A stretch of DNA of 41,446 nucleotides from a virus (Duplodnaviria > Caudoviricetes). Below are positions 1,013-35,287 of the stretch, in pieces. The DNA lies in IMG/VR virus record IMGVR_UViG_3300024275_000016, positions 1 through 41,446 of that record, one strand, 5' to 3'. The notes under the pieces were generated by a model, which was not told where the DNA came from, did no database searches, and saw only the letters and a program-made list of their open reading frames with translations. Position numbers and translations under genes: made by a program. Every line of letters starts with the position of its first letter. Position 1 is the stretch's first letter.

Positions 1013-1576
1013 CTATCGCCAGTCCGAGTGCCGGCCGGCGAACTGCTCGCGCCTCTTATTGGTGACCTGGACGTAGATCATGGTGTTCTGGATGTTGGAA
1101 TGTCCCAGATGGTCCTGGATGGCCACAATATCGGTGTCATGGGCAGACAGGTAGGTCCCACACGAATGCTTCAGCGCATGCATGTGGGCCCTCTCAGGAG
1201 CGATGTGCGCTTTCGCGCAGTAGTCCTTCATCAGCTGGTCAAGGCGCGATCGGGAGACGCGGCCGTGCTGCCGGGTGGTGAAGAGCGGCCCTGGCGCCAT
1301 GCCCCGTATCCGGAGCCAGGCGCTGATCGCCAGGCGCTCCGACCGCACCAACGGGAACTCGCCCGAGTTCGATCCCTTCAGCCGGCGGATCATGATCCGC
1401 TGGGCCTTCTCCCGGTAGTCGCCAATCTGGATCATCCCCAGCTCGCTGGCGCGCAGGCCACGGTGGTACGCCAGGCGAAACATGGCTGTATCCCGGGGCG
1501 ATTTGATGACCGCGAACAGGCGATCGATCTCTTCCTCGGTCAGGTATTCGGGGATTGTCTTAACCTTGCGTTTCAT
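1013..1576 (-). CDS. tyrosine recombinase, FimB/FimE/Xer-like, catalytic domain only
   Basis: 187 aa; RDTAMFRLAYHRGLRASE (Arg), RRLKGS (Lys), HMHALKHSCG (HxxK/R), LGHSNIQNTMIY (His, Tyr). Confidence 0.92.
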   Translation of the reverse strand: MKRKVKTIPEYLTEEEIDRLFAVIKSPRDTAMFRLAYHRGLRASELGMIQIGDYREKAQRIMIRRLKGSNSGEFPLVRSERLAISAWLRIRGMAPGPLFTTRQHGRVSRSRLDQLMKDYCAKAHIAPERAHMHALKHSCGTYLSAHDTDIVAIQDHLGHSNIQNTMIYVQVTNKRREQFAGRHSDWR

Positions 1577-1880
1577 CCTTCAATTCTGCTCGTTCTTTGG
1601 ATTCTCCCTCTTGCAGTTGCGCCGGACCAAGGGCTGGAGCCAACTCCGCCAGCAATGGCCTGAGCTCGGGACCCTTCATGCCCGAGTGGCGCGCGATCGC
1701 AAATTGCAGCGATAGCAGCTTCAACCGGTTCGCGTCATTGCCGTTGATTCGGGACAGTACCTTCAGCGCCATATTCGCTCGCCCATTGGCGTTGTCGCTG
1801 CCCGTTGTAAAGTAATCCTTGATTGACTCGAGCGCCTGGGGCGCCAGATCATTCAGTGCTTTCGATGCTTCGGTATCCAT
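1560..1880 (-). CDS. hypothetical protein between array and recombinase
   Basis: 106-aa ORF; ATG directly follows the last array repeat, which supplies AGGAG; overlaps the recombinase start. Confidence 0.7.
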   Translation of the reverse strand: MDTEASKALNDLAPQALESIKDYFTTGSDNANGRANMALKVLSRINGNDANRLKLLSLQFAIARHSGMKGPELRPLLAELAPALGPAQLQEGESKERAELKDETQG

Positions 1881-2340
1881 TCTTCAGTTCTCCTTTTCCT
1901 TGTATCGAATGCTCCTTCAGTTCTCCCCGCGTCTGATTGCACACCGCCTTCAGTTCTCCCCAAATCGATTGCTCCCGCGCGCGACGATCGAGCATCGGGA
2001 AAATCTGGCGACCTTCAGTTCTCCTCGGCTATTCCCCAAATCGATGCTCTCTCAGTGCGCCGCAGCGACCTTCAGTTCTCCTCCGCGTCTGCTCACGACT
2101 GCGCCCTTCAGTTCTCCTCGTTCCGTTGTTCCAAATGCTACAACGCGCACGGATTCTCCCATGCGAATGAGATCAAGCCCTTCAGTTCCCCTCGCCAAAT
2201 TCACAACGCAGCGCGACCTTCAGTTCTCCTCGCCCTTATCCGCTCTGAGGACCTTCAGTTCTCCCCGCCCTTCCCAGAAAGGAGGAACCATGCCTTCAGT
2301 TCTCCTCAATTCTTGCAGTAGCACCACCTTCAGTTCTCCT
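1881..2340 (-). CRISPR. atypical CRISPR-like mini-array, 11 short repeats (minus-strand consensus RGGAGAACTGAAGG)
   Basis: CCTTCAGTTCTCCY on + strand starting at 1881, 1914, 1947, 2012, 2069, 2105, 2179, 2217, 2252, 2293, 2327; intervening unique segments mostly 19-27 nt (three longer: 43, 51, 60 nt); begins 2 nt after the stop codon of the Cas12f-like gene. Confidence 0.8.
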
Positions 2341-2342
2341 CG

Positions 2343-3461
2343 CTATTCCCCGAATCGATGCTCCAGCTCGCGGATCGCCGCGCCGGCCTTCGTGGCCTGC
2401 TTCCGTTTGCGGTCGATTTCCCGCTTAACGGCACGCTCCGTTCCGGCATCCGCCAGGTCTGCCTCCGTGTGGACGTTCATTGCCAGCATATCGCCTTTAT
2501 CCTTCAGCATTTGTGTGAAGCGAAACGCCGGCCAGTCCGCATTTTCCAGCCCAACCACTGTCAGATCCCCTATCCCCTGCCCCTTCAGCCAGTCGATAAT
2601 CTCTCGAGACCACTGGTGCAGCCAATTCGTGAGCCAGCCGTCCCAGGTCATGTTGGCGAGCGTCTGACGCTTGCTGCGGGCTGAACCCTTGCGCCGGCCG
2701 ATCTGACACAACACCCGGCGCCGTATCGCATCCCACTCCTGTTTCCGCTTCAATAGCGTGACCAGCCGGCCGGTGAAGTCCCGGGACTCGAATTCCGTCC
2801 GCAGCCACAACCTATTGTTTTGTCCAATTGGGCCCAAGGTGGCCTTACGCTGGCCGAACGTGCCAAATTGTACCGCTATGGGGTAGGCCAGCCGGACTAT
2901 GACCTGGCGCCGTTCCGGCTTGACGACGATCGCGGCCTTGCGAATCGATATCTTCCCGGCCGCCATGTCATCCAGCAGGGGGCCCTGCCAGTCTTTGACT
3001 GTCCCGCACGCGAGGGGAATTTTAAGCCACGCCCCGTCCTCACATTTCGCTGCCTGTGCCTGTAATTCAATGACATAGCGGTCACCGTCTCGAGTCAGAC
3101 GGACCCCTGATTCCTTCCGGTCCTTGTTGCCGCGGATGGTGAGGGCGGCTGTGGTTTTCCACTCAGGGAGAGGGGCGCCGGCCAGGATGCGTTTGGCGTG
3201 GCGCCGCCAGGTCATCAGAACTTCGCGTTCTGCGGCCGTATAGGCATTGCTGCCCAGTTCCATCTTCTCGTCGTGCCGGATCCACCGGGTCACATCGTGA
3301 GGGATGTTTTTGGTGGGATCGACGCAGAGATTTTTGGATTCAGCCCAGAGCGCGCGCAGGAACAGGTTCCGGTAGCGTGCTGCCTGCCATGAGAGGTCCT
3401 TGAGGCGCTGGAAGAGTTCCCAGTCTCCCCGCAGATCGAGTTTAACGGCGAGCACGCGCAT
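2343..3461 (-). CDS. Cas12f/TnpB-like RNA-guided protein, predicted nuclease-dead and C-terminally truncated
   Basis: Blocks resembling Cas12f1 (recalled alignment): DWELFQRLKDLSWQAARYRN, LGSNAY..WRRHAKRILAGAPLPEWK, LLDDMAAGKISI..VIVRLAY, NWLHQWSREIIDWLKGQGIGDLTVVGL, WPAFRFTQMLKDKG. RuvC-I GIDLG reads LGPIG, RuvC-II MEDL reads VVGL, no CxxC ribbon or RuvC-III. Start ATG 3461 (372 aa) or GTG 3485. Confidence 0.8.
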   Translation of the reverse strand: MRVLAVKLDLRGDWELFQRLKDLSWQAARYRNLFLRALWAESKNLCVDPTKNIPHDVTRWIRHDEKMELGSNAYTAAEREVLMTWRRHAKRILAGAPLPEWKTTAALTIRGNKDRKESGVRLTRDGDRYVIELQAQAAKCEDGAWLKIPLACGTVKDWQGPLLDDMAAGKISIRKAAIVVKPERRQVIVRLAYPIAVQFGTFGQRKATLGPIGQNNRLWLRTEFESRDFTGRLVTLLKRKQEWDAIRRRVLCQIGRRKGSARSKRQTLANMTWDGWLTNWLHQWSREIIDWLKGQGIGDLTVVGLENADWPAFRFTQMLKDKGDMLAMNVHTEADLADAGTERAVKREIDRKRKQATKAGAAIRELEHRFGE

Positions 3462-3489
3462 ACGCTCATGCTCGCCGTCTGCCACTGCC

Positions 3490-3625
3490 TCTGACGCTGT
3501 ATGCGGCACCACGACCGGAGAACTGGGGCCGTCGCCGTTGCCGGCGTGAAGAGTGCCTCGTGCGAGATTACGAGGAGATTCAGCCGAAGCAGTAGAATCG
3601 GACATTCCAATCCAACTGTACGCTA
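3490..3625 (-). ncRNA. putative tracrRNA/scaffold RNA
   Basis: Intergenic; minus strand has CAGTTCTCC (3525..3517) complementary to repeat GGAGAACTG and CTTCA (3551..3547) complementary to repeat TGAAG; several hairpins including a GCAA tetraloop; ends approximate. Confidence 0.6.
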
Positions 3626-3631
3626 AAAGCC

Positions 3632-3778
3632 TCAGTCGGTGGTGACCAAGCATTTTATCAATGCATAGGCCAGCACCACGTTCAGAGCCATCGACAAAAG
3701 CAAAAGACGCCGGTACCGCATTACTTCGCGGTACGGCGTCCACGCCCGCTCTTTGAGCATGTCGTCATGATGCTTCAT
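3632..3778 (-). CDS. small membrane protein
   Basis: MKHHDD... 48 aa, one hydrophobic helix, ATGA overlap with the upstream gene. Confidence 0.5.
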   Translation of the reverse strand: MKHHDDMLKERAWTPYREVMRYRRLLLLSMALNVVLAYALIKCLVTTD

Positions 3779-3999
3779 CTGTCGCCCAGCGTCCATGCCA
3801 CCAACATGATCAGTAGGAACAGCACGAGGCCAGGCCAGCCGCCGGCGATCGCACGCACATAGGCTAGTATGAAGTCGTGGGGGCCGGTAATACGGCGTCC
3901 GTTGGTATACGGGGGCAAGACCGGGATTCGCCACCCGGTGCCGGATGAAATACGCCGGGAGACCAATCCAACACGTGCGCGGAGGCGGGCGTACATCAT
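3775..3999 (-). CDS. small membrane protein
   Basis: 74 aa with C-terminal hydrophobic helix; ATGA-coupled on both sides. Confidence 0.55.
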   Translation of the reverse strand: MMYARLRARVGLVSRRISSGTGWRIPVLPPYTNGRRITGPHDFILAYVRAIAGGWPGLVLFLLIMLVAWTLGDR

Positions 4000-4370
4000 T
4001 CCTGCCCCCTAGAGTATTCCGCCATCCCGGCGTAGGTGTCGTTGAGCCGCGCCACCAGGGCTGCGAAGTCGATGCCCATTGCCTCCCGGTTGCGGTGGTA
4101 GCTCACCGGGTGAGCCTGGTGGCAGTCATGGCACAGCGGAACTGCGGTCGTATCTGATGCCTTCTGGCGCATGCCGCCGTCTGAGCCCGTGTGGGCTGCT
4201 TCTACCTGGTGGGTGGTCCCGCAGGCTGCGCAGGGTAGCGTGCGGATCCAGGAGAGGTACTTGCGATCGCGGACGGGCCCGCGGCGGCCGATGCGTGGCC
4301 GGCGCCGCGGTTTCCTAGGGTGCACGGTCTCTCCATGCACCGCATAGCGTAGGTATCGGATTAAGCTCAT
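3996..4370 (-). CDS. DUF968/HNH-like zinc-binding phage nuclease
   Basis: KYLSWIRTLPCAACG..EAAH..DTTAVPLCHDCH motif; start placed at ATGA overlap 4370. Confidence 0.75.
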   Translation of the reverse strand: MSLIRYLRYAVHGETVHPRKPRRRPRIGRRGPVRDRKYLSWIRTLPCAACGTTHQVEAAHTGSDGGMRQKASDTTAVPLCHDCHQAHPVSYHRNREAMGIDFAALVARLNDTYAGMAEYSRGQE

Positions 4371-34371: not shown

Positions 34372-34811
34372 GACTGGATGCGTTCGACAAAAACGACCTC
34401 AAGTTTACTTTCGATAGGTCCACCGGCTGGACCGGTGTGCTCGTAACGCTCCCGGTATTTCTCCGGCCTGGCGCCGCGGAGCAGGAACTGGAGCAGGGAG
34501 TCGGAGTACTTGCGGATGGCCAGCGGCTGGTCGGAGCGCTTCATCCGGCCGTCTTTCCCCTTCACCTTGTCGTAGGTGAATTTGCCCTTGAAGACCACAG
34601 GCTCATCCACCCCGTAGACCGCACGCCGCAGGGCCTCCTCTTCCAGCACTCCGATCGCGACTTCGGTCGCTTCGGCGAATGCCGCGGCGTACTTCTTGTC
34701 CTTCCGCAGTCGTCGGTAATGTTGATCTCGGCAGATGCCGGCCGCTTCAGATGCCCTGGCGATGCTGCCAGTCTCCTGGTAGCACTTCAGGAATACGCTA
34801 GAGCGATTCAT
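34368..34811 (-). CDS. terS: terminase small subunit
   Basis: N-terminal HTH-like segment; LEEEALRRAVYGV, KYSDSLLQFLLRGARPEKYR, EHTGPAGGPI. Confidence 0.8.
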   Translation of the reverse strand: MNRSSVFLKCYQETGSIARASEAAGICRDQHYRRLRKDKKYAAAFAEATEVAIGVLEEEALRRAVYGVDEPVVFKGKFTYDKVKGKDGRMKRSDQPLAIRKYSDSLLQFLLRGARPEKYRERYEHTGPAGGPIESKLEVVFVERIQS

Positions 34812-35287
34812 CGTGTCAGGGATTCGGCGTCTACTTCGGCAGACACGGCCTGGTGCAGCATCTCGATCGCTACCACCACCCGGGCCTGGCTTTTCACCCA
34901 GACGATGACACCCGAGACGCCGGCCAGCGGGCCGCTGCCAATCCGCACCGGCTGCCCGACAGTGTAATCGTGGACCGCCAGGCCTTTCCCGGATTCGGTG
35001 AGTTGCCGCACCGCATCAATCTGGGCGTCGGGGATCGGCTCCGGTTGGGTGCCACAGCCCAGGATCCGGATCACCTGTGAGATCTCCACGACGGGCTTCC
35101 GGCCGGCCAGGTCGAATCGGCCAAACACGTAGCCCGGCATCAGCACCTCGTCTACGTCCGGACGGTATCTGCGCAGCGATCGCCGGCGCAGGGTCGGGAC
35201 ATAAGACTCCACCCCGCAGGCTCGGAGCCGAGCCGCAACCAGAGCCTCAGAGCAGGAGGCCACGTGCAATGCGTACCAGGGGGGCAA
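34808..35287 (-). CDS. NusG/RfaH/UpxY-family transcription antiterminator
   Basis: WYALHV, LMPGYVF (NGN domain), PIPDAQI, GQPVRIGSGPLAGVSG (KOW); TTG start. Confidence 0.9.
   Translation of the reverse strand: MPPWYALHVASCSEALVAARLRACGVESYVPTLRRRSLRRYRPDVDEVLMPGYVFGRFDLAGRKPVVEISQVIRILGCGTQPEPIPDAQIDAVRQLTESGKGLAVHDYTVGQPVRIGSGPLAGVSGVIVWVKSQARVVVAIEMLHQAVSAEVDAESLTR

Follow-up and report, generated by a model that had tools for sequence, protein, structure and literature searches.

The 5' end of a phage gene for a Cas12f-like effector carries what we regard, with high confidence, as a genuine tracrRNA-like scaffold, as indicated by comparison of its sequence with that of related loci. Less firmly, we favor a fuller model in which this element is the tracrRNA of a nuclease-dead Cas12f-like phage system, also serves as the first 40-50 translated effector codons, and supports DNA binding without cutting. 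The window, that is the whole stretch of DNA analyzed, is an entire virus record of 41,446 bases with P22-like portal, coat and terminase genes.

The locus lies on the minus strand in the order scaffold region, effector ORF (ending at 2343), array, 106-aa gene and short tyrosine recombinase gene. The predicted scaffold covers 3483..3600, with approximate ends. A candidate upstream ATG of the effector (3603..3605), with a weak ribosome-binding signal, is found directly 5' of the closing stem and would give a 420-aa form, so that the effector gene (2343..3605) comprises a Cas12f-like core of 372 aa (2343-3461) and a low-confidence N-terminal extension of 48 codons over the scaffold. The array (1881..2342) contains 11 minimal repeats with the core CGAGGAGAACTGAAGG; it begins directly after the effector stop codon, has units of 33-74 nt, and its last copy stands directly 5' of the ATG of the conserved partner gene (1560..1880, 106 aa). 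The recombinase gene (1013..1576) has a degenerate solo repeat (1577..1591) directly 5' of its ATG. Elsewhere in the window a NusG-family gene was noted at 34808-35287 (minus strand), upstream of the terminase genes, together with a 20-bp inverted repeat at 1-61 and a short direct repeat at 892/968.

A total of 22 related loci came from the first collection, and L151, whose record lacks the 5' part of the effector gene, and L152 were added later. For the pairing test, duplicates or near-duplicates (L003, L008, L019, L020 and L021), loci without upstream sequence (L012 and L016) and loci without an array (L013 and L022) were dropped, which left 13 loci and the window (n = 14). Genes neighboring the related loci include RecT, terminase and integrase. 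The effector had no match among INPHARED phages, the GTDB genomes gave 30 and 9 pattern matches with no relative among them, and none of the 101 matches of the scaffold DNA pattern in viral contigs adjoined an effector. P0096 as scan query yielded no usable locus, and a sequence look-up for windows resembling this one found none.

All segments named in a sequence-only reading of this DNA were present on the minus strand where it had placed them; the element, at about 3483-3600, extends beyond the limits given there, and its long closing stem was absent from that reading. This head-to-toe stem, P1 (5' arm 3581..3595, 3' arm 3483..3499), joins the 5' and 3' flanks, and a stem of this kind was predicted for all 16 loci compared (p <= 0.07 vs. 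shuffles). The GGCAC/GTGCC stem that had been read as closing a junction is real and corresponds to P2 (5' arm 3553..3557, after a conserved CGA; 3' arm 3505..3509), a 5-bp stem that follows GAGG in each locus with upstream sequence. In the alignment, where L010 is misaligned at this place, 95% of P2 cells are paired and three of the five pairs show two-sided changes. The hairpin CCTCGT-AATCTCGC-ACGAGG exists at about 3556-3575, but as a conserved element it did not hold up, with three consensus pairs in five close loci; it arises because the repeat of this clade happens to begin CGAGG, and it competes with P2 because two G residues are common to both. When the free RNA of the window is folded, most of the upstream anti-repeat described below is buried in this hairpin. 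A GNRA hairpin occupies 3533-3546 and a second hairpin 3511-3532, with its loop at 3517-3526. The fold of the region was better than that of shuffled sequences (z = -2.45; 2 of 200 shuffles as good). The scaffold measures about 115-120 nt in the window and about 95 nt without the insert, within an overall range of about 95-130 nt. No Rfam match was obtained over 1500-4200 at E <= 5, and a promoter scan gave chance-level hits only.

Evidence for an RNA comes from its predicted pairing with the repeat. Anti-repeat B (CTTCA, 3547..3551), which sits at a fixed position in the P2 loop, is the complement of the repeat 3' end TGAAG and would pair in pseudoknot fashion, as the sequence-only reading had proposed; this proposal was supported. 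With the anchors placed by eye on an intramolecular motif after the sequences had been viewed, the loop 5-mer and the last five conserved bases of the repeat were fully complementary in all 14 loci (70 of 70 Watson-Crick pairs), and the five loop/repeat types (CTTCA/TGAAG, CCTCA/TGAGG, CTGCA/TGCAG, CTCCG/CGGAG and TCGCA/TGCGA) matched at 1/120 in an exact permutation. Since the 14 loci are related, independent changes are few, the loop/repeat pair changing four or five times on the tree. A short repeat 3'-end pairing of the pseudoknot type known from tracrRNAs (5-7 bp) is present, as is a second repeat/anti-repeat duplex, shorter than in Cas12f1. The latter is formed by anti-repeat A (TCTCCTCG, 3571..3578), which complements the repeat 5' half CGAGGAGA; across loci it lies 17-37 nt upstream of the loop 5-mer and complements the repeat 5' half after two skipped bases. 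It makes 4-10 Watson-Crick pairs with the cognate repeat (sum 103) vs. a non-cognate mean of 3.96 (1/40,320 by eight types), and in 13 of 14 loci at most one of 20-21 control windows reached the cognate score; that of L005 is weak, with 4 pairs and a score reached by 12 of 21 control windows. No further conserved anti-repeat was seen in the scaffolds compared.

The L006 loop was anticipated from the repeat and then found, and L152, about 30% identical and out of sample, matched at 5/5 loop positions and at 6 of the first 7 positions of anti-repeat A. Among repeat-copy variants in all loci, 47 keep the pairing and 59 break it, 41 of the latter in L006, where the repeat 5' half is barely conserved and the partner positions of anti-repeat A vary freely among copies. 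In the window copies, each of the 4 variant positions scored has A replaced by G, so that a G-U pair remains. The scaffold of L004 and L006 is set apart from the ORF by intervening repeats, and both the stems and the repeat match are still kept; the predicted RNA role persists without translation through the scaffold. The co-variation of anti-repeat and repeat in homologues that had been named as a check was found at two sites in 14 loci, which supports the idea of one scaffold RNA and the suggestion that pairing explains why only a 15-16-nt repeat core was kept.

A clade-specific 36-nt insert (3511..3546) contains the GNRA hairpin and the CCAGTTCTCC hairpin, whose loop is complementary to the repeat middle. 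Inserts of this kind, 30-36 nt long, occur in 5 of 16 loci and are missing from the other 11. Three of the five carry an 8-9-nt repeat complement, that of L001 has 4 nt, and in L013, which has no array, none was seen by inspection. Of 11 matches to the repeat-core 9-mer in the 41-kb window (0.30 expected over its whole length), 10 belong to the array and the remaining one is the complement at 3517-3525. The sequence-only reading had CTTCA and the CCAGTTCTCC loop together cover almost the whole repeat core; the complementarity is there, but the two cannot both pair fully because their targets overlap on the repeat. Nor is CCAGTTCTCC supported as the main second anti-repeat, given the 11 loci without the insert; the conserved one is TCTCCTCG, which that reading had put inside its first hairpin and not recognized as an anti-repeat. 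In its clade the insert may aid crRNA capture or provide an accessory site outside the scaffold core.

The scaffold region also has features of coding sequence. The effector frame through it is stop-free in 14 of 14 linked loci vs. 13 of 28 off-frames (Fisher p = 5e-4), and in 10 of 10 vs. 6 of 20 when relatives are collapsed (p = 3e-4). All inserts are multiples of three. Among the database proteins, 29 of 53 were scored with an extension of 30 or more residues, and in 28 of these 29 the scaffold codons, by a loose pattern, are in the same frame. The extension itself is modeled with pLDDT < 50. The sequence-only reading had treated translation of the region as a refutation of the RNA; this either/or looks false, since the region is an open in-frame extension that shows RNA co-variation. 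Because the extension is open in all 14 linked loci, coding and RNA roles likely coexist, and translation through the scaffold is likely in most of the clade, though not universal.

For the effector core, 56 homologues (41-100% identity) were obtained, and a profile yielded 162 representatives. Its model shows the WED/REC/RuvC fold, with AsCas12f as Foldseek top match (E 3.8e-16); AsCas12f1 and SpCas12f1 were the best solved sequences in the profile search (E 1e-6), and the solved dCas12f scored weakly against the effector profile (E 0.007). Among the matches listed in a 160-protein alignment, distant relatives still possess the zinc finger and the RuvC motifs with D and E, while TLGP and VxGL replace the D/E motifs in the effector family. 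At the C-terminus a basic helix replaces the zinc finger and RuvC-III, and all RuvC catalytic residues are absent. The D-E-D triad and C-terminal zinc finger that mark Cas12f1 are lacking, and loss of cutting is predicted because the catalytic motifs are absent; the effector is predicted to be a C-terminally truncated, nuclease-dead Cas12f-like protein. The NCBIfam Cas12c model did not match it, and a TIGR-Tas identity was rejected, the protein having a Cas12f fold.

The partner gene was found 3' of the effector in every locus with enough sequence. Its product, a predicted four-helix bundle, has no Pfam or PHROGs family, matched only generic four-helix bundles in Atlas, BFVD and PDB (Z <= 9.2), and showed no similarity to the effector; no longer fused form was present among 7,998 scored candidates. 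Neither the 54 window ORFs nor 77 neighbor ORFs contained a sigma family member. The recombinase was not accepted as belonging to the core system, since only the window and L014 have a short one beside the array (1013-1576, minus strand, and L014:4806-5411, respectively); these proteins of 187-202 aa consist of the catalytic domain only and are encoded downstream of the array.

Repeats and unique spacers are present in the arrays, which form a graded set. Regular repeats of 35-37 nt were found in L002, L005, L009, L010, L015, L017, L018 and L152, worn forms in L004, L007, L012 and L016, and cores of 11-16 nt in the window, L001, L006, L011 and L014; the minimal arrays retain unique guides of about 18-20 nt. 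Searches of 203 guides against the window and the 22 loci and of 107 guides against nine records returned only the arrays themselves, one gene-start duplicate and chance-level matches, no match better than E 0.2 emerged when arrays were compared with phages and plasmids, and one exact 20-mer scan for guide targets had 0 matches.

Several further features of the repeats were recorded. The window repeat cores at 1577-1591 and 1881-1896 (minus strand) include an SD-like purine run directly 5' of the recombinase and partner ATGs, respectively, and in L006, L011, L012 and L016 the TGA stop of the effector is supplied by the repeat. Solo cores away from arrays, mostly at gene boundaries, were noted in L124, L125 (L001 record), L129, L130 (L004 record) and L134. 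In the window, the last codons of the effector (2343-2364) recur almost exactly before another repeat copy (2028-2050); these and other spacer tails seem to be what is left of the 5' portion of an older repeat of about 36 nt. The extensions of P0012, L001 and L013 contain repeat-like units inserted in frame, three of them, with ELK, in P0012. A further array in opposite orientation lies 125-334 nt upstream of the scaffold anchor in L014. In the array leaders of L002, L005, L017 and L018 the repeat 3' end recurs in inverted orientation and might pair with a degenerate first repeat; in L005 and L018 a stretch of 11-13 nt complementary to the repeat also lies some 138 nt upstream of the anchor. 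The L009 array includes several spacers of about 20 nt rather than 35 nt and one that occurs nearly in duplicate, which suggests spacer shortening inside a full-length array. In L151 an array (840-1390) lies between the effector and a partner-like gene, and its repeat ends TGCGAG, like that of the unrelated-looking L002 group.

From these observations a mechanism can be proposed. The operon transcript would be either translated or folded in its 5' part over the start region, in which case the effector would bind and trimming would release the tracrRNA. Each repeat-plus-guide unit would dock on both anti-repeats, and the complex, probably with the four-helix partner, would bind matching double-stranded DNA without cutting it and thereby keep competitor elements or host genes from being transcribed or replicated. 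As only the paired 15-16 nt of each repeat would be needed, arrays could wear down from repeats of 36 nt to minimal cores. The likely function is RNA-guided DNA binding without cutting; as the guide searches gave no target, binding and silencing are postulated from what is known of the family and of other inactive type V effectors (PMC12669027; PMC13472631).

Other explanations of the scaffold region were weighed. The most serious places the tracrRNA of this phage in an untranslated leader, or under its own promoter, with the effector starting at the in-frame ATG at 3461 and the open frame as a relic. The Shine-Dalgarno (SD) energy of the upstream ATG (-3.1 kcal/mol) is weak and no better than that of the downstream ATG (-2.8 kcal/mol), stronger starts lie downstream of the scaffold in L010 and L013, and in L152 the scaffold motif is read in another frame and followed by an SD-GTG; the scaffold is detached from the ORF in L004 and L006, and 24 of 53 database proteins were not scored with an extension. 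All of this would suit a leader, but scaffold-to-core distances keep phase in 11 of 12 distinct values and so do the five inserts, the downstream Met is not conserved, and start codons that immediately precede the closing stem, 46-61 nt upstream of GAGG, have SD energies <= -6 kcal/mol in 7 of 14 linked loci, so that we hold this explanation to be rather unlikely. That the region is a poorly conserved protein extension only, its complementarity being a coincidence or a set of relic repeat fragments, could appeal to the open reading frame and to inverted repeat copies near some loci (L014); it is contradicted by position-fixed, two-sided co-variation at two sites and by compensatory stems, and is scarcely credible. 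A very improbable variant takes the CCAGTTCTCC hairpin loop and CTTCA as the working anti-repeats. Although CCAGTTCTCC is a perfect 9-nt complement with a duplex energy (-15.1) near that of anti-repeat A (-13.9), and 8-nt versions occur under different stems in L011 and L014, such a complement is absent from 13 of 16 loci and overlaps both conserved pairing sites on the repeat. Nine base pairs inside a 10-nt loop are, moreover, sterically unlikely.

The target, too, could be other than DNA: the scaffold-effector complex might act mainly on RNA, docking on repeat cores at ribosome-binding sites or gene junctions of phage mRNAs and controlling their translation or processing. Such a role would fit the SD-like cores directly 5' of the partner and recombinase ATGs, the solo cores at gene boundaries in L004, L006 and L001 (in the last, 4 of 6 copies occupy junctions elsewhere than at the effector gene), and the lack of DNA targets in the guide searches. 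We consider it improbable, as seven related loci have regular 35-37-nt repeats with diverse spacers of about 35 nt and the minimal arrays keep their unique guides, both of which fit guide-directed targeting, and as the junction placement may only mirror where insertions are tolerated. The preferred model remains that of a tracrRNA, also translated, for a non-cutting DNA-binding effector. A broader reading that joins these elements is possible but, as a whole, rather unlikely: a distinct two-protein, nuclease-dead type V phage system in which the effector mRNA start would be a permuted miniature tracrRNA and the transcript would be translated or consumed, a built-in feedback. The four-helix partner would replace the second Cas12f subunit or recruit a host machine, and the 11-16-nt cores would be natural multiplex guides that spread to gene junctions, turning gene starts into guides or docking sites.

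Among known systems, the likeness to type V-F1 Cas12f1 includes the effector fold, the best sequence and structure matches, two duplexes with a pseudoknot, and the closing stem; Cas12f1 is described as having two repeat/anti-repeat duplexes, one of them a 5-7-bp pseudoknot (PMC11246509), and a head-to-toe stem is predicted for SpCas12f1 (PMC12255294). Known Cas12f1 tracrRNAs are 153-169 nt long and lie between gene and array (PMC8548392), whereas the present scaffold measures about 95-130 nt and, in 16 of 16 loci, precedes the folded core on its 5' side. The longer anti-repeat (6-10 nt) is located 5' of the pseudoknot loop here, while the design of Cas12f1 tracr-GAAA-crRNA fusions implies a position at the tracr 3' end, so the anti-repeat order appears permuted. 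Unlike Cas12f1, the effector is devoid of active site and zinc finger, and it is accompanied by a partner protein.

C-terminal truncation and a RuvC predicted to be dead recall dCas12f, which is C-terminally truncated and RuvC-dead; for one dCas12f cluster, which retains CRISPR arrays, a repressing role has been proposed (Hoffmann et al., PMC13472631), and an array is present here too. Characterized dCas12f uses single guides without a tracrRNA and pairs with sigmaE (PMC13472631), whereas no sigma factor was found here, scaffold and arrays are separate, and a four-helix protein acts as the candidate partner. The scoutRNA of Cas12c/Cas12d likewise pairs with the repeat in short, discontinuous segments (PMC9522604), but those effectors are far larger, about 1,200 aa (PMC11641405). 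The proposed mode of action, binding without cleavage, is that of Cas12m (PMC12669027) and TldR (PMC13472631), although Cas12m is described as needing no tracrRNA (PMC11641405) and TldR as using single guides.

Within the parts of the literature compared, which also included bioRxiv 2026.04.20.719267 and PMC10691335, a 5'-coding tracrRNA with a dead Cas12f and a small partner is not described; the cluster lists (PMC10691335, PMC12669027, PMC13472631), the V-O/V-P paper and the bioRxiv supplements could include the family. The partner hints at a new effector function in phages, and a 372-aa dead effector with a scaffold of about 95 nt and guide units of about 33 nt would make a very compact multiplex DNA-binding platform. 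Across the loci, repeats range naturally from 36 nt down to cores of 11-16 nt, and the bases retained are the ones complementary to the scaffold; this match makes the minimal Cas12f tracrRNA-crRNA contact directly testable. The tracrRNA of Cas12n (V-N) and the omega-RNA of TnpB overlap a disordered terminal part of the ORF (PMC12216341; PMC11641405; bioRxiv 2026.03.27.714800), and the scaffold here is likewise written over such a part of the effector ORF. In Cas12n, a DNA-cutting enzyme, the overlap involves the C-terminal tail, whereas here it is N-terminal, beside the start codon of a predicted dead effector, a 5'-end mirror that offers an obvious route to self-regulation. Precedent exists separately for the two-duplex tracrRNA, the head-to-toe stem, the ORF-overlapping tracrRNA and the dead Cas12f.
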